Counted from the first letter of the stretch, positions 24,119 through 30,076 are shown. The stretch is DNA of 64,000 nucleotides from Planctomycetota bacterium (GCA_002685965.1 NYZE01000005.1:1712-65711); one strand, 5' to 3'. A program made the numbers and translations. Notes: generated by a model not told the origin, from the letters alone.

Positions 24119-25738
24119 TCAGGGTCTGCGGCGAGTGAAGAGCATGCGGCGAGCACGGCGGGTGCTGACGCGGACGCCAGTGATTCGATCGGCATCATCG
24201 CGTTCAAACTCGAGCAAGCCACCGCGGATCGTGAACATCAGATCGCGGGTGAGCGGCTGGTGGGCGACGCCGTCGAAGGCCAGGGCGGCCTTGCGCCGGC
24301 GGACCTGGATGGTCCGATCGAGTTCGACGCTGTGGTATTGGCCTTCGTAGTCCTTCCAGGTCCTGGCCGGCATCGTGAACGGCGGCAGCGCGGTGAATCG
24401 ACGCGCGTTCTCGTTGGCGACCTGCAGCTTCAGTCCGGACACCGAGCCGTTGGCTGCGCGCAGGACTTCGCCTGCGACGGGTAGGGCCGTGCCGATCGAA
24501 CGCAACTTGTCGCCCTTGTTACTCACGAGGTCGATCTGCCAGGAGAGGGTGACTAGGCGCATCCGGTCTCGTTGTGGCGCCAGCCGCGCCAGGTCGCCGC
24601 TGTCGTCATCCACGAGGAGGGCCGGTGCATCGATCGGCTGCTTGCCGGCCGGTGCCTTCGCGGGTGGCTGGAGCCTGTCGCCGAGGAATACGGCCGCTGT
24701 CGCCATGGCGAGCCGTGACGCGTCGATGTTCGCCGCGTTGCCGAGCAACGCGACGCAGAGCCCTTGGTCAGGGAAGAAGGCACTGTGGGCGCGGAAGCCG
24801 AACGAGCTGCCCGCGTGCTGGACTACACGCACGCCGCGGTATCGCCCGACCCTGAGCCCGGCGGCGTAGTCGCCGGTCCGCGGACTGCGGCGTTGTGACC
24901 CGTCGAGCTTGGGTGCTGTCAGCATGCGGCGCACGAACGAATCGCTCGCTCCCTTCGCCTGCATGCTCTCGAGCCAGCGCAAGAGGTCCATGACGGATAT
25001 GAACAGACCTCCCGAACCCACCATGGCGAAGCGCGTGCGGTGTGGCACATACCGCTTGCCGCGTCGTTGGTGCCCGACCGCCGCCTGCGGCACGTCGTGA
25101 TCGGAGCTGTCCTTGAACACCGAGTTCTTCATGCCGTGCGGTTCGAACAGCGCCTTCGTCGCATACTCGCGCAACGAGCTCTTCGTGAGCCTGCCGATGA
25201 TGACGCCAAGCAGGAAGTAGCCGCTGTTGCAGTAGAGATAGTCCGAGCCCGGCGCGAAGTTGAGGTCACGCTGTTTGGCGAGCAACGCGACCACGTCGTC
25301 GGCGCTTTGATCGCGATCGAAGTCGAGCTTCGCGAACCTTCCCAGCTCGAAGTAGTCACGCAGCCCGCTGCGGTGATGCACGAGGTCGCCGATCGAAATG
25401 CCTCCACCAACTGCAGTGAACTCCGTCAAGTGCGTTTGCAGCGAGTCACTCCACTTCAGCTTGCCTTCTGCTTCCAGCATGACGGCGCACGCGGCGACGA
25501 ACTGCTTTGACACCGACGCTGCGTAGAAACGTGTCGTCTTGGTGATCGATCCACCCTTCTCGACGTCTGCCAAGCCGTAGCAGCCGACGTGCAAGAGCTT
25601 GCCGCCCCTGGACAGGGCGACTGCAACGCCAGGGGTCTTCTCGTTCCAGCTGGCAAAGAGCGCGTCCACCTTGGCCTCGTGCGGATCCTGCGCCGGGGCC
25701 GCGAGGGCGAGGGCGAGGGCGAGGATTGCGGTTTGCAT
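24119..25738 (-). CDS. Secreted serine hydrolase of the beta-lactamase / penicillin-binding (class C-like) family
   Basis: Track ORF to 25780; signal peptide begins at MQTAILALALALAAPAQDP (ATG 25738). SxxK motif in FYAASVSKQF. C-terminal extension of about 180 aa. Confidence 0.75.
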   Translation of the reverse strand: MQTAILALALALAAPAQDPHEAKVDALFASWNEKTPGVAVALSRGGKLLHVGCYGLADVEKGGSITKTTRFYAASVSKQFVAACAVMLEAEGKLKWSDSLQTHLTEFTAVGGGISIGDLVHHRSGLRDYFELGRFAKLDFDRDQSADDVVALLAKQRDLNFAPGSDYLYCNSGYFLLGVIIGRLTKSSLREYATKALFEPHGMKNSVFKDSSDHDVPQAAVGHQRRGKRYVPHRTRFAMVGSGGLFISVMDLLRWLESMQAKGASDSFVRRMLTAPKLDGSQRRSPRTGDYAAGLRVGRYRGVRVVQHAGSSFGFRAHSAFFPDQGLCVALLGNAANIDASRLAMATAAVFLGDRLQPPAKAPAGKQPIDAPALLVDDDSGDLARLAPQRDRMRLVTLSWQIDLVSNKGDKLRSIGTALPVAGEVLRAANGSVSGLKLQVANENARRFTALPPFTMPARTWKDYEGQYHSVELDRTIQVRRRKAALAFDGVAHQPLTRDLMFTIRGGLLEFERDDADRITGVRVSTRRARRMLFTRRRP

Positions 25739-25826
25739 CGTGCTCAACTTACCCACGCTGGAATACCGCAACTCGAACATCTCGCTTGACGAACGGAGGT
25801 TCCCGCACGAGTCTCACTGGAGGTCG

Positions 25827-25903
25827 GGGCGATTAGCTCAGCTGGTTAGAGCACCTGCTTTACACGCAGGAAGTCGGCGGTTCGAGTCCGTCATCGCCCA
25901 CCA
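25827..25903 (+). tRNA. tRNA-Val (anticodon TAC)
   Basis: GGGCGATTAGCTCAGCTGGTTAGAGCACCTGCTTTACACGCAGGAAGTCGGCGGTTCGAGTCCGTCATCGCCCACCA. Acceptor GGGCGAT/ATCGCCC, anticodon loop TT-TAC-AC, encoded CCA. Confidence 0.95.
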
Positions 25904-25905
25904 CT
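25893..25905 (+). repeat. Direct repeat copy 1 (candidate attL): ATCGCCCACCACT, last 11 nt of tRNA-Val plus 2 nt
   Basis: Exact 13-mer recurs at 28989-29001 in the same orientation. Confidence 0.7.
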
Positions 25906-26086
25906 AGACCTTTGTCGATTCCGACTTTACGGAAACCCGCTCGAGGCGAGCGGCGCGACACACACCGGAGGCGATGGACTTGGTCCACTTCCAGGAGCGT
26001 GACGCGATGAGCAAGACGAAGAAGAAGAGCAGCAACGACGACGTGCCCGAGCTGCGCGTGAAACGACGGCCGCCCAATAAGAAGAC

Positions 26087-26680
26087 GTGCGAGAACCGCG
26101 ACACCTGCTACGCCACTTCAACGGCATCAAGGTCTGGTTCGGGAGAGCAGACGATCCCGGAACCAGGAAGACCTTCGACGCCTACCTGGCGCGGTGGCTC
26201 GCGAACGATCGCCGCTCGCTCGAGGAGCACGAAGACGACGAGCACCTCACAGTCGAGGAGCTCGTCGACCGCTTCCAGGCGTGGGCCGATGCCTACTACG
26301 TCAAGGACGGCGAGCCGACCCGCGAAGCCAGCATCATCGAGTTCGCATGCAAGCCGCTGACCATGCTCTATGGCACGGAATCCGCGGCGACGTTCGGGCC
26401 CCAAGCACTACGCGCGGTCCGCGAGGACATGATCCGGCGCAAGTGGTCCCGCAAGAACATCAACCGACAGGTCGGCCGCGTGCGACGGGTCTTCAAGTGG
26501 GCCGTCGAACGTGAGCTGGTTCCGCCGAGCATCTCGCACGCACTCGCGTGCGTTGCCCCACTCAAGCGAGGACGAACCGAAGCCAAAGAGCGCAAGCCGG
26601 TCGCGCCGATCGCGTGGGCCGACGTGGAAGCGGTGTTGCCCTGCGTCTCGAACGAGGTCCGCGCCATCGAGCTGGGGTAG
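26087..26680 (+). pseudogene. Tyrosine recombinase / phage integrase, N-terminal (arm plus core-binding) half only; catalytic domain missing
   Basis: 197 codons from GTG: REPRHLLRHFNGIKVWFGRADDPGTRKTFDAYLARWLAN... AYYVKDGEPT ... VGRVRRVFKWAVERELVPPS ... VRAIELG, then stop. The ORF ends where the catalytic domain (LTGxRxxE, R-H-R-Y residues) should begin, 9 bp from the convergent astacin stop. Upstream frame (MSKTKKKSSNDDVPELRVKRRPPNKK, from about 26007) may be a frameshifted leader. Confidence 0.7.
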
Positions 26681-26688
26681 TGCGCGAC

Positions 26689-28929
26689 TCATCGCGCGAT
26701 CGTCAACGGCGCCGCGTTGGTCGCGAACTGGAGACCGGCACCGAGCACCGCGAACGAGTGGTAGAGAGTCAACGGTCGCACGGCCTGGGCAACCGTGAGC
26801 GGCATCGACCATGTCGCCGTTGCGCGTCCGAGGCTGTCGAGGCGCGGGATCGCGGGGTTCAGCAGAGCGCCGGGCGCCGCGAGCAGCAGGCTCGTGTACG
26901 CGTCGAACTGCACCGGCAAGCGGACCTTGCCCGCCAGGACACCTGGACGCGTGCCGGTAAAGCTGCCGAGCAGGACGGCGAAGCCTCCGGCATGGACAGC
27001 ACCGGCCTCGATCTTCATCTGCACGGTCGACCAACTGCGCGTTCGATCCAAGACGAGGCTCGGCGCGAGCGCCGGTCGCCCCGAGATCAGATGCACTGCG
27101 CCCGCATCACTGGCTGCCCCTGCTGCGCCAACGGCGAAGTCCGGGGTGCCATCGCCGTTCCCATCACCACACCCAGCGACGGTGCCGCCGAACTCGCCCT
27201 TGTCTGCGATGCCGGTGAAGCGCGCCAGGGTGTAACCGTCCCGACTGGAAAAGACGTAGGCGATGCCGCGGTGCCCGGTGGCGACATTGGCGCGCGGTGC
27301 GCCGACCACCAAGTCGGGCCGGCCATCGCCATCGCTGTCGGCAATCCCACCGACACTGGTGCCGAACCGATCGCCGAGGCTTTCGCCCTCCAGGAGCAAC
27401 AGCTCCGTCAGGTCCTTGCCCGACAACAAACGTGCCCGACCCCGACCTGCGGTCTGTGGCGCGCCAGCGATCACGTCATCGACGCCATCGTTGTTGGCGT
27501 CGCCGGCGTTGGCGATCGAAGTGCCGAGCGAGTCCCCGATCGCAGCACCACGGCGGCGCCGCAGCACCGTACCGTCGCGCCCGGATAACAGATACACCGA
27601 GCCGTCAGCGGCGAGGGCACGCCCGGGTTCGCCCGCTGCGACATCGGGCACGCCGTCGGTATTGCCATCCCCGATGATCGCGACTCCGGTGCCGAGTTCG
27701 AACAGGGAGACACCGGTCCGGCGCCACAACTCGGCGCCGGTCTTCCCCGAGTAGGCGATGACCCGGCCCGCGCTGGGAAAGTTGCCGACCGCGAGCGGCG
27801 CGCCGACCACGACGTCGGGCACCTTGTCGGCATCGAGGTCCACGCCACCGGCGGCCGCGTGACCGAAGCTCGGCCCGCTGGCGGCGTCGCGCAGCGTGCG
27901 CAGCACTCGTGGCCCTGACGCGTCGCGCAGCCACTTGCCCGAGACGACCTCGACCAATCCGTTGCCGCCCACCAGAAGGTCGTCGATCGAGTCGCCGTTG
28001 ACGTCGCCTGCACTCGCCAATGCCACGCCGAGGCCGTTGCCAGCCGCTGCGCCGGTGAAGCATCTGAGCGCCGCACCGTTGGCCCCTGACCAGACCGTGA
28101 CACGGCCGGCGTCCTTGCCGCCGCCGTCGTCACCGGGAGCGCCGCCCGCGAAGTCCGGCACCTTGTCGCCGTCCACGTCGTGCAGTCCCACCACCGCCGC
28201 ACCCAGCTGATCCCCGATGCTTGCGCGGCCATGCTCGAACAACTGACCGACCTGGGGCCTGGGGTACAGGACGTTCATCCGTCGCACGTCGAGCGCGCTC
28301 AAATAGATGCGCTGGCCGAGCAGCGGCGTGTACTTCTTGTCCCACGGTGGCCGCACCGTCATCGTCGGCTGGGCGTTGCTCGAACACTGGAAGCGGTGGT
28401 AGTGCATGATCGACTCGAAGTCGTACGGCACGTCGAACAGCTCCACATTCGTCAAGATCCTGTACTGGCTCGCGCAGTTGATGTTGGCGCTGTGCACCTG
28501 GATGTAGGTGTCGCGATCGGCACGCATGTGCTCGTGCCAGAACCCGACCGCGTGACAGATCTCGTGCATGATCGTGTACTTGCGTTCCCAGTTCGCGATG
28601 TTGATGAACTGCTGACCGCCTGTGCGTCCGATCGAAGAGCTGTTGTTGCCGGAGTTGCGGATGTGGATGTAGGCCGCCTCGGTCGTGCGCGGGATGAAGC
28701 GCAGCCCCGACACCTTCTCCCACGATCGCATCGAGTGCAGCGACCGGGCGTGGTTCTGCGGGTTGACGGCCGGATCGATGACGAAGTGCACGATGCCGTT
28801 GGGCCAGGGCCTGCCCGCCCACGTCGCGGGGCCGGGGTCGATGTGGATGCAGCCATCGACGCATCTGGCGCCCTGTGCCGGCACCGTGACTGGCAGAAGG
28901 GCCAGGACCAGCAGGGAGAGAGGGCGCAT
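26689..28929 (-). CDS. Secreted astacin-family (M12A) zinc metalloprotease fused to FG-GAP / integrin-alpha-like repeats
   Basis: 746 aa. Signal peptide MRPLSLLVLALLPVTVPAQG. Full astacin signature HEICHAVGFWHEHMRADRD and Met-turn SIMHY. At least six FG-GAP/Ca-binding units follow (DVDGDKVPDFAGGAPG, GDVNGDSIDDLLVGG, DLDADKVPDVVVGAP, GDGNTDGVPDVAAGEPG, GDANNDGVDDVIAGAP, DSDGDGRPDLVVGAP, GDGNGDGTPDFAVGAAG), then a C-terminal domain of about 130 aa. Confidence 0.85.
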   Translation of the reverse strand: MRPLSLLVLALLPVTVPAQGARCVDGCIHIDPGPATWAGRPWPNGIVHFVIDPAVNPQNHARSLHSMRSWEKVSGLRFIPRTTEAAYIHIRNSGNNSSSIGRTGGQQFINIANWERKYTIMHEICHAVGFWHEHMRADRDTYIQVHSANINCASQYRILTNVELFDVPYDFESIMHYHRFQCSSNAQPTMTVRPPWDKKYTPLLGQRIYLSALDVRRMNVLYPRPQVGQLFEHGRASIGDQLGAAVVGLHDVDGDKVPDFAGGAPGDDGGGKDAGRVTVWSGANGAALRCFTGAAAGNGLGVALASAGDVNGDSIDDLLVGGNGLVEVVSGKWLRDASGPRVLRTLRDAASGPSFGHAAAGGVDLDADKVPDVVVGAPLAVGNFPSAGRVIAYSGKTGAELWRRTGVSLFELGTGVAIIGDGNTDGVPDVAAGEPGRALAADGSVYLLSGRDGTVLRRRRGAAIGDSLGTSIANAGDANNDGVDDVIAGAPQTAGRGRARLLSGKDLTELLLLEGESLGDRFGTSVGGIADSDGDGRPDLVVGAPRANVATGHRGIAYVFSSRDGYTLARFTGIADKGEFGGTVAGCGDGNGDGTPDFAVGAAGAASDAGAVHLISGRPALAPSLVLDRTRSWSTVQMKIEAGAVHAGGFAVLLGSFTGTRPGVLAGKVRLPVQFDAYTSLLLAAPGALLNPAIPRLDSLGRATATWSMPLTVAQAVRPLTLYHSFAVLGAGLQFATNAAPLTIAR

Positions 28930-28988
28930 CCGCCCATCATAGACGGGTTACTGCACGAGGATGTCCAGCGCATCGCCGGCGCTTCCAG

Positions 28989-29001
28989 TATCGCCCACCA
29001 C
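28989..29001 (+). repeat. Direct repeat copy 2 (candidate attR): ATCGCCCACCACT
   Basis: Exact copy of 25893-25905. Lies in the 193-bp spacer between the astacin start (28929) and the HIT start (29123). Confidence 0.7.
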
Positions 29002-29122
29002 TCGGTGCGAATCCGACATCGCGCGAGTTGCGCGCAGCGTGAGGGAGGTGGTCAGGGTTTTTCGAGAGCTGCCCACCGGGGTGGGTGTGTGGCGTTCCAT
29101 GTGGCGGTCCTATGCTGACCAT

Positions 29123-29509
29123 ATGGCCAGCATCTTTGCGCGTATCGTTGCCGGTGAGATCCCCTGCCACAGGGTGTGGGAGGATGAGGATCACCTCGCC
29201 TTTCTCGATCTCAATCCGATCCAGCCCGGGCACACGCTGGTGATCCCGAAGGTGGAGGTCGCCTACCTCTTCGATCTGGAAGCGGAGGCGTTTGCGGCGC
29301 TGTGGGGGGCGGTCCGGGCTGTCGAGGCCAAGGTGCGCGCTGCGACGGCGGCGAAGCGAGTCGTCGTGGAGGTCGTTGGGTACGAGGTTCCGCACGTCCA
29401 CGTGCACCTGATCCCGACGAGGCAGCTCTCGGACTATCCGGTGCCGCCGCGCGGGAAGATGGCCGACGAGGAGCTCGCGGCGATGGCTGCGGGGATGCGC
29501 GAGGCGTAG
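29123..29509 (+). CDS. HIT-family (histidine triad) nucleotide hydrolase/transferase
   Basis: Track ORF 28961-29509. Family N-terminus MASIFARIVAGEIPCHRVWEDEDHLAFLD begins at ATG 29123. Histidine triad VPHVHVHLIP. Confidence 0.85.
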   Translation: MASIFARIVAGEIPCHRVWEDEDHLAFLDLNPIQPGHTLVIPKVEVAYLFDLEAEAFAALWGAVRAVEAKVRAATAAKRVVVEVVGYEVPHVHVHLIPTRQLSDYPVPPRGKMADEELAAMAAGMREA

Positions 29510-29878: not shown

Positions 29879-30076
29879 ATGGCCAAAGGAACGATCAAGA
29901 AGTTAGTTTCCGACAAAGGGTTCGGTTTCATCGAAGGTGATGGAGTTGAGCTCTTCTTCCACAGCTCGGCCTTGCAGAACTGCAGGTTCGACGAGCTCCG
30001 TGAGGGGCAGGCCGTGGAGTACACGGCAGGCGACGGCCCCAAGGGTCCGCGCGCCGAGAGCGTCGAAATCGTCTAA
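29879..30076 (+). CDS. Cold-shock domain protein (CspA family)
   Basis: 65 aa. MAKGTIKKLVSDKGFGFIEGDG (RNP1 KGFGFI), LFFHSS (RNP2-like). AAGGAG SD 8 nt upstream. 369-bp upstream non-coding leader. Confidence 0.9.
   Translation: MAKGTIKKLVSDKGFGFIEGDGVELFFHSSALQNCRFDELREGQAVEYTAGDGPKGPRAESVEIV

Follow-up and report, generated by a model that had tools for sequence, protein, structure and literature searches.

We describe here a single protein-coding gene in a 64,000-nucleotide stretch of DNA (the window) from a Planctomycetota bacterium (GCA_002685965.1 NYZE01000005.1:1712-65711). The coding sequence, at 26689..28929 on the minus strand, is complete (746 aa plus stop) and is a genuine, intact and uncharacterised modular astacin, in which an astacin catalytic domain, an FG-GAP propeller and a C-terminal beta-sandwich follow one another in one chain. 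Taken as a whole, the evidence is best explained, and in our view probably explained, by a Sec-secreted modular zymogen of family M12A with a cysteine switch and a propeller as binding module, which would have originated by fusion and would now lie in a decayed islet beside a tRNA gene. The astacin-propeller combination is real and rare, while both of its parts are common in Planctomycetota; it is a notable variant and no new kind of system.

Given the rarity of the architecture, one can ask whether the fusion is an artefact, produced by chimeric assembly or by frameshifted neighbours, or else a dead pseudo-protease. The 746-aa open reading frame (ORF) at 26689-28929 (-) is the one running from the first start to the stop, and an in-frame TAA lies 6 codons 5′ of the ATG with no other start between them; a longer N terminus is therefore impossible. 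The protein is identical to one held at NCBI as 'MAG: hypothetical protein CMJ85_00735 [Planctomycetes bacterium]' (MAG, metagenome-assembled genome), and the same ORF is found, in constant context, on at least 10 contigs that were assembled independently from marine samples, those of Tara Oceans among them. Therefore, the fusion is real and not an assembly chimera. The 2241-nt gene was recovered in 14 full-length copies, 100% identical at the DNA level, and in several partial ones; these come from different ocean samples and assemblers, with three singleton differences elsewhere, all nonsynonymous (L001-L024). With the gene 100% identical in its 14 full copies, a test for selection on population polymorphism had no power. 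Beyond rarity, nothing speaks for an artefact or a dead enzyme, and against the latter the catalytic and metal-binding residues are all intact, as are the family-invariant positions of the propeller. We give these explanations next to no credence. As a separate observation, the identity of the gene across ocean samples points to a host population that is nearly clonal and widely distributed.

The astacin (M12A) catalytic domain occupies residues 35-226 (28252..28827, (-)), as delimited by Pfam, sequence matches in the PDB, an AlphaFold2 (AF2) model and our alignment A4. A preliminary description of this DNA had pointed to a complete metzincin/astacin signature and to the Met-turn SIMHY, and both strings are indeed present. 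The first, HEICHAVGFWHEHMRADRD, corresponds by direct reading to residues 122-140 (nt 28510-28566); its zinc motif, H122-E-I-C-H126-A-V-G-F-W-H132-E133-H-M-R-A-D-R-D, fits HExxHxxGFxHExxRxDRD. The second, S173-I-M175-H-Y177, lies at residues 173-177 (nt 28399-28413), with its Tyr at the position of the fifth zinc ligand. Profile searching places the signature well inside the astacin family, with Pfam Astacin (PF01400) matching residues 42-222 at 133.9 bits, against a cut-off of 22.5 (E=7.2e-39), and the FG-GAP families were matched in the same scan. Among solved astacins, sequence matches were found to BMP-1 (E=2.3e-27, 98 bits), astacin (9e-22) and meprin beta (4e-20). In A4, H122, E123, H126, G129, H132, R136 and D138 are invariant and E133 is nearly so (at least 90%); S173, M175, H176 and Y177 are invariant as well. 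The predicted local distance difference test score (pLDDT) of the AF2 model exceeds 90 over residues 41-222. With catalytic and metal-binding positions all intact, the straightforward reading of the sequence is therefore an active, secreted zinc endopeptidase of MEROPS family M12A.

The N terminus is consistent with secretion, as the preliminary description had supposed. By inspection, residues 1-20 (MRPLSLLVLALLPVTVPAQG; 28870..28929, (-)) form a Sec-type signal peptide with a positive n-region, a hydrophobic core and a VPA/AQG cleavage motif (pLDDT below 50). A lipobox is not present in the N terminus, where Arg precedes Cys23. The same description had noted that a long pro-peptide was missing between signal peptide and catalytic domain and had raised the question of the aspartate switch. 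It was right about length, with only some 14 residues available; the pro-segment itself is not missing. The putative minimal pro-segment, residues 21-34 (ARCVDGCIHIDPGP; 28828..28869, (-)), was delimited from A4, from BLASTP against P0147 and from the motifs of relatives, and it carries V24-D-G-C27-I28 (nt 28846-28860) in register with the latency motif of astacins, F-E-G-D-I. Cys27 there replaces the switch Asp.

That register is close. In both A4 and the BLASTP alignment with P0147, V24-D-G-C27-I-H-I-D falls column for column on I-E-G-D-I-I-V-P, putting Cys27 on the switch Asp. Relatives carry, some 16 residues 5′ of W-P-x-G, either x-E-G-D-I-x-V-P (or V-D-D-x-x-x-P) or a Cys-containing segment; the spacing from V-D-G-C-I to W42 in our protein is 14 residues, compared to their roughly 16. 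The A4 profile also aligns into known zymogens, reaching the pro-peptides of pro-meprin beta and of Limulus pro-astacin, and in pro-astacin 3lq0 it aligns from chain residue 18, which we take to be the F that opens F18-E-G-D21-I. About 10 further astacins from Planctomycetota have the same [ED]-G-C-[IV] form of the motif (P0211, P0237, L045, L053, L063, L064, L066, L070, L092 and L100). In P0225, an EGC and an EGD latency motif stand in tandem ('EGCIIIEGDIVVP').

In the literature, F-E-G-D-I is called the 'PP motif', and its Asp caps the zinc in what is known as the aspartate switch. The only proven cysteine-switch astacin in the literature is myroilysin, which does not contain the F-E-G-D-I motif. 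With Cys27 at the zinc-capping position, we infer that the protein is a cysteine-switch zymogen.

Several observations weigh against this view. The AF2 model has pLDDT below 50 at residues 1-26 and 31-36, with only residues 27-30 above 50; docking of the pro-segment is therefore not modelled. Just 6 residues separate the signal peptide from Cys27, and a 14-mer, where published astacin pro-segments span 34-486 aa, may be too short to keep the enzyme latent. The pair C23 and C27, spaced CxxxC, could form a disulfide instead. The site of maturation is predicted only from alignment with BMP-1 and astacin; BMP-1 aligns from its mature residue 8 to residue 39 of our protein, so that a mature N terminus would be expected at about residue 32-35. 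Finally, both canonical disulfides of animal astacins, which we take to be C42-C198 and C64-C84 in astacin numbering, are absent, the BMP-1 alignment putting residues other than Cys at those positions (the protein's own Cys residues are 23, 27, 125, 152, 182, 290 and 587).

One can therefore envision an enzyme with no latent stage, in which residues 21-34 are a plain N-terminal tail, or a small loop closed by a Cys23-Cys27 disulfide, and activity is controlled solely by secretion and by the availability of calcium or zinc. A segment so far below the described range of pro-segments, left undocked by AF2 and with a spacing that suits a disulfide, would fit this. However, the V-D-G-C-I motif and its spacing to W42 are in register with a latency motif conserved in the clade, and the family-specific E133, acceptor of the newly cleaved N terminus, has been kept. 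The [ED]GC[IV] variant also appears in several lineages, pointing to selection on that Cys. We regard an enzyme without latency as unlikely, while taking it seriously, and prefer the cysteine-switch zymogen.

Behind the catalytic domain, residues 232-616 (27082..28236, (-)) make up a seven-bladed FG-GAP beta-propeller of the integrin-alpha type, recognised by Pfam, by motif scan, by AF2 and by Foldseek. Pfam FG-GAP (PF01839) matched in five stretches (E=2.3e-27), compared to seven in the homologue P0113, and FG-GAP_3 matched with E=6e-10. The preliminary description had counted six to seven units with DxDxDG-type calcium loops; the motif scan gives seven, starting at residues 242, 300, 355, 412, 468, 522 and 580, and the AF2 model agrees. 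It contains 27 strands and one bridge residue, making seven four-stranded blades, of which blade 7 consists of three strands and the bridge residue. Thus, the repeat region does model as a propeller. Blades 4-7 have canonical D-x-[DN]-x-D-G-x-x-D loops, namely DGNTDGVPD (421), DANNDGVDD (477), DSDGDGRPD (531) and DGNGDGTPD (589), while in blades 1-3 the Asp/Asn ligands are kept with K or S at the Gly position; the loop Asp positions are mostly invariant in alignment A1. With calcium loops by motif in every blade, the propeller is predicted to be calcium stabilised.

Comparison of the full model with the PDB by Foldseek gave integrin alpha headpieces as the best matches among solved structures (E about 1e-20). 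For the propeller-only chain 8tcg_A, the root-mean-square deviation was 5.1 Å and the target-normalised template modelling (TM) score 0.63. At the sequence level, integrin alpha4, alphaV and alpha5 were matched over blades 4-7, with E values of 1e-17 to 1e-14. The linker between astacin domain and propeller is about 5 residues long and of low confidence (pLDDT below 50 at 225-230 and 234-236).

The chain ends in a conserved domain, overlooked in the preliminary description, that covers residues 619-746 (about 128 aa; 26692..27075, (-)) and was delimited by alignments A1 and A3, hidden Markov model (HMM) matches and AF2. Modelled alone, it folds as an Ig-like beta-sandwich with a pLDDT of 80.7. 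It has no match to a Pfam or NCBIfam family and no sequence relative in the PDB; Foldseek against the PDB gave no significant match (best E=0.028, generic Ig-like), and a word-index search with the domain profile returned only one fragment. In all 10 of the 10 proteins bearing it, the domain ends 0-2 residues from the end of the protein. We considered whether this sandwich might be the integrin thigh domain, given that the full model aligns over 611-666 columns with propeller-plus-thigh headpiece and ectodomain chains, and rejected this for want of a specific match.

Putting these parts together, we imagine the following. Once the signal peptide is removed, the enzyme would be a zymogen whose pro-segment, at about 14 residues, is unusually short; the V-D-G-C-I in it would sit in the active-site cleft like the F-E-G-D-I of animal pro-astacins. 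Cys27, instead of Asp, would cap the catalytic zinc, a cysteine switch within an aspartate-switch scaffold. Cleavage near residues 33-35 would then open the cleft, and the new N terminus would anchor to E133. The calcium-stabilised propeller and the beta-sandwich would serve as a non-catalytic binding module, tethering the protease to a macromolecular substrate, to a particle or to the cell's own surface. Such a role would parallel that of the CBM, TIG, PKD, dockerin, Ig, Kelch, PD40 and FG-GAP_2 modules that follow the catalytic domain in related bacterial astacins. As for origin, an astacin of the Planctomycetota type, with signal and pro-segment, would have been joined, at the point where the mature chain begins, to a stand-alone Planctomycetota protein of about 560 aa made up of a signal, seven FG-GAP units and the C-terminal domain.

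By analogy, both to those modules and to integrin propellers, targeting of the protease by its propeller is plausible. Alternatively, propeller and sandwich might have nothing to do with substrate and act instead as an envelope anchor, a secretion or sorting module, a means of oligomerisation or a steric regulator of the catalytic domain. The constant position of the sandwich at the very end of the chain is what one sees in sorting and anchor domains, no more than about 5 residues separate propeller and catalytic domain, and bacterial integrin-type propellers are without established function. Against this, a transmembrane segment, a lipobox and a known sorting signal are all absent. The C-terminal domain matches no NCBIfam or Pfam domain, sorting domains included, and the only NCBIfam match of the whole protein is to LegP. 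Furthermore, bona fide carbohydrate- and protein-binding modules stand at the same position in related astacins. We therefore judge a role in anchoring, sorting or steric control to be quite improbable and retain the binding module as our working model.

How common is this architecture? Apart from the protein itself, none of the best 120 full-length matches has an Astacin domain, and none of the best 80 genome loci described below has a related propeller within 4 kb. Astacin/FG-GAP fusions were not described in the literature searched, where joint mentions of the two did not concern bacterial proteins. An exhaustive HMMER search through 1.84 billion cluster representatives turned up 16,791 proteins with an astacin domain (E at most 1e-3), and the 149 best astacin cluster representatives include three other fusions to FG-GAP-type propellers: P0176 (Astacin+TIG+FG-GAP+LTD), and P0196 and P0268 (each Astacin plus seven FG-GAP_2). 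In all three, as in our protein, a seven-blade FG-GAP-superfamily propeller comes after the astacin domain, with differences in propeller subfamily or in additional domains; P0176, unlike our protein, uses an Asp-type latency motif. Their catalytic domains are 37-40% identical to that of our protein and rank 24th to 62nd among its neighbours; that of P0176 is 68% identical to the one at locus L026, which lacks any related FG-GAP propeller within 4 kb. Since these catalytic domains are not the nearest neighbours of each other or of our protein, the fusions look independent of each other, and such recurrence supports a functional partnership between the two modules.

Other relatives carry TIG, CBM_4_9, CBM_5_12, dockerin, PKD, CARDB, cadherin-like, Ig, Kelch or PD40 modules. 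Judged from these domain assignments, a catalytic domain followed by a C-terminal binding module is the ordinary plan in the bacterial clade, and the FG-GAP partner is rare but recurrent within it. Two further arrangements were seen in passing: P0154 (2300 aa) combines subtilase S8 and astacin domains in one chain, and in P0191 an astacin domain is fused to a PD40 (WD40-like) propeller.

The likely sources of the modules can be named. Residues 228-746 align along their full length with a family of stand-alone Planctomycetota proteins, 555-566 aa long and 33-39% identical (for example P0113, P0085, P0090 and P0067) that consist of a signal peptide, seven FG-GAP units and the same C-terminal domain. 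The fusion junction coincides with the start of the mature chain in these stand-alone proteins; they have a signal peptide alone where our protein has signal, pro-segment and astacin domain. The gene neighbourhoods of the stand-alone homologues are not conserved and gave no functional clue, which is no help to the binding role proposed above. Besides these, Planctomycetota have very many longer 'integrin alpha' proteins (P0002-P0120), about 950-1000 aa in length, whose 13-14 FG-GAP repeats amount to two propellers; some of them end in the same C-terminal beta-sandwich, and some are fused to TPR repeats or to sigma-70 regions.

For the catalytic domain, the best single-domain relatives (P0147, P0149 and P0150) are only 45-49% identical, and the named ones among relatives of this type are called 'M12 family metallopeptidase [Planctomycetota bacterium]'. 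When genomes of Bacteria and Archaea, one for each species, were scanned with one strict peptide pattern, YDF[DE]S[VLI]MH, 467 astacin loci were confirmed. The best 80 of these (L025-L104) fall in 63 cases into Planctomycetota MAGs, mainly Phycisphaerae, Isosphaeraceae, Pirellulales and Planctomycetaceae; 9 are from Chloroflexota, 3 from Verrucomicrobiota and a few from other groups. The 'animal' latency motif, E-G-D-I, is retained in many of them. A rough neighbour-joining tree, not bootstrapped, was built from six eukaryotic sequences and a bacterial group of 90 members; in it, the eukaryotic six form their own clade and our protein is a long lone branch within the bacterial group; its BLOSUM62-based distances are at least 0.53 to bacterial and at least 0.67 to eukaryotic sequences. 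The catalytic-domain phylogeny envisaged in the preliminary description thus places the protein, roughly, among bacterial astacins.

That description had also remarked that both modules are best known from the extracellular-matrix biology of animals. This turns out to be no pointer to an animal origin: the closest catalytic domains belong to bacteria from the environment, most of them Planctomycetota. One might suspect that the gene was acquired recently, by horizontal transfer from an animal or another eukaryote, with both domain types prominent in Metazoa, a tRNA-linked islet with an integrase remnant around the gene, and a review that argues for holozoan-to-bacterium transfer of astacins. 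However, identity is 45-49% to bacterial catalytic domains, compared to at most 37% to those of nematode and tick and a 98-bit match to BMP-1, and 63 of the 80 best genome loci are from Planctomycetota. Propeller and C-terminal module have homologues in the same phylum, the G+C content at third codon positions (GC3) equals the host mean, and both canonical animal disulfides are absent. With the nearest catalytic domains bacterial, and mostly from Planctomycetota, we rejected an animal origin, which seems very improbable. From the Planctomycetota relatives, the tree position and the native GC3, it follows therefore that both modules are at home in the phylum, and these sequence comparisons do not indicate a recent animal donor.

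It is worth setting the protein beside better-known systems. With animal astacins (crayfish astacin, BMP-1/tolloid, meprins, hatching enzymes) it shares the zinc motif, SxMHY with its Tyr ligand, the family-specific Glu and a pro-motif in register, as well as the modular plan of signal, pro-segment, catalytic domain and then binding domains. It differs from them in having Cys for the switch Asp, a pro-segment of about 14 aa where theirs have 34-486, and none of the canonical disulfides. Its added modules are an FG-GAP propeller and a beta-sandwich, whereas theirs are CUB, EGF, MAM, TRAF or ShK, and its host, unlike theirs, is a free-living marine Planctomycetota bacterium.

Myroilysin, like our protein, is a bacterial M12A enzyme; its zymogen is blocked by a Cys of the pro-segment, a role that we assign to Cys27 from its position. 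Myroilysin, in contrast, has no F-E-G-D-I-type motif, has a large flap and is a single domain, whereas Cys27 lies inside a motif of the animal type. That myroilysin lacks F-x-G-D-I shows that the motif is not required for astacin membership. The profile of the clade matched myroilysin with E=3.5e-8 and BMP-1/TLL1 with 1e-53; therefore, these bacterial enzymes are far nearer to animal astacins than is myroilysin, the one bacterial astacin whose structure has been studied. LegP, the astacin of Legionella that is a Dot/Icm effector (NCBIfam NF045530), likewise has a bacterial astacin-like catalytic domain. Equivalence to LegP was rejected: the score is 122 bits against a cut-off of 300, and our protein has a Sec signal and extra domains.

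The propeller resembles those of integrin alpha and the bacterial integrin-type propellers (Chouhan et al. 2011, PMC3192720) in its seven FG-GAP blades, and its DxDxDG calcium loops are in blades 4-7, the blades that bear them in alphaV, alphaIIb, alpha5 and alpha8. Unlike integrin alpha, it has acidic loop ligands in all seven blades, and there is no thigh match, calf, transmembrane segment, cytoplasmic tail or beta subunit. The chain ends at residue 746 in a soluble beta-sandwich, with no hydrophobic C-terminal segment.

We turn now to the genomic setting. The preliminary description had proposed that the gene, as the sole cargo of a tRNA islet, was acquired horizontally. Some of this holds. 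A tRNA-Val gene (TAC; 25827..25903, (+)) is the proposed integration site, and a 197-aa ORF (26087..26680, (+)) corresponds to the N-terminal, core-binding part of a tyrosine integrase. It matched PHROG 1 (E=3.7e-7) over profile positions 120-277 of 611, with the catalytic half missing, and matched no Pfam or NCBIfam family; being truncated, it is therefore non-functional. This remnant starts 184 nt 3′ of tRNA-Val, and its stop lies 8 nt from that of the convergent astacin gene, so that a deletion probably removed the remainder of a formerly larger island. The islet now measures 3.1 kb, with the astacin fusion as its only intact gene.

On the far side, in the spacer between the astacin start and a HIT gene, the 3′ end of tRNA-Val is repeated in two adjacent, degenerate copies (28984..29022, (+)), a candidate attR relic. 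They lie at 28984-29000 (14/17, with an 11-nt exact run, ATCGCCCACCA) and 29003-29022 (17/20), 2 nt apart. Each copy taken alone is near noise, other matches in the window reaching 22-24 compared to 25, and within the gene itself, at 27958, there is another 14/17 match just as good. Nevertheless, the adjacency of the two copies, their strand and their location between genes suggest an attR relic, and the copies may be relics of two successive integrations.

Other observations tell against acquisition. GC3 of the gene is 0.84, compared to a window mean of 0.825 ± 0.035, a native composition. An empty site was not found: exact look-ups of both flanking proteins gave the occupied arrangement only, and the contigs with flanking genes, where long enough, all show that same arrangement. 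A scan of genome contigs with the neighbouring beta-lactamase-family protein gave no relative. Pattern scans of metagenomes for an empty junction and for the junction of upstream flank and tRNA-Val gave 0 matches each, which is uninformative, as the collection may lack this population (a JGI contig carries the locus). Native composition, relatives in the same phylum and the lack of an empty site in the data searched weigh against a recent foreign origin. The islet is thus probably a decayed, old insertion, and any donor was probably a related bacterium.

In two samples (L005/L009 from SRR28208100; L006/L011 from ERZ28654154), the contigs on the astacin side and on the beta-lactamase side end within or next to tRNA-Val, at about 25780-25990 of the window. 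Such endings point to a branch in the assembly graph at this site, which may come from strain variation or from a repeat.

The neighbouring genes are of ordinary kinds: a beta-lactamase-family (PF00144) protein of 553 aa at 24119-25780 (-) and, on the other side, a HIT-family hydrolase and a cold-shock-domain protein at 29123-29509 and 29879-30076 (+). Public annotations place a 50-aa ORF upstream of the astacin gene, and this looks spurious. Scanning for promoters and terminators gave nothing useful, and no paralogues of any of the three modules were found elsewhere in the window.

In the published view, bacterial astacins are few and sporadic, xenologues acquired from animal hosts, with a divergent latency mechanism. 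The 467 loci reported here, with 63 of the best 80 in Planctomycetota, sit uneasily with the picture of few, animal-associated bacterial enzymes. We tentatively propose, as one possibility to keep in mind, that free-living Planctomycetota and other environmental bacteria hold a large undescribed astacin clade. This clade would keep the animal F-E-G-D-I motif and be closer to animal astacins than myroilysin is; the switch Asp would have flipped to Cys within the motif, and our protein would have the shortest pro-segment. If this is true, the published picture of bacterial astacins as xenologues from animal hosts needs revision, and one small protein would make it possible to address directly both the Asp-to-Cys transition and the question of what a bacterial integrin-type propeller binds.

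A protease fused to a bacterial integrin-type propeller is a compact natural construct. It speaks for an extracellular binding role of the propeller and provides a handle for assays. The protein probably belongs among the secreted hydrolases with which marine Planctomycetota act on particulate organic matter. The Cys-for-Asp motif, for its part, lies between the aspartate switch of animals and the cysteine switch of myroilysin, combined with a minimal pro-segment of about 14 residues. The main interest of the protein is in this latency motif, in how little pro-segment accompanies it, and in what the Planctomycetota clade would imply for the evolution of astacins.

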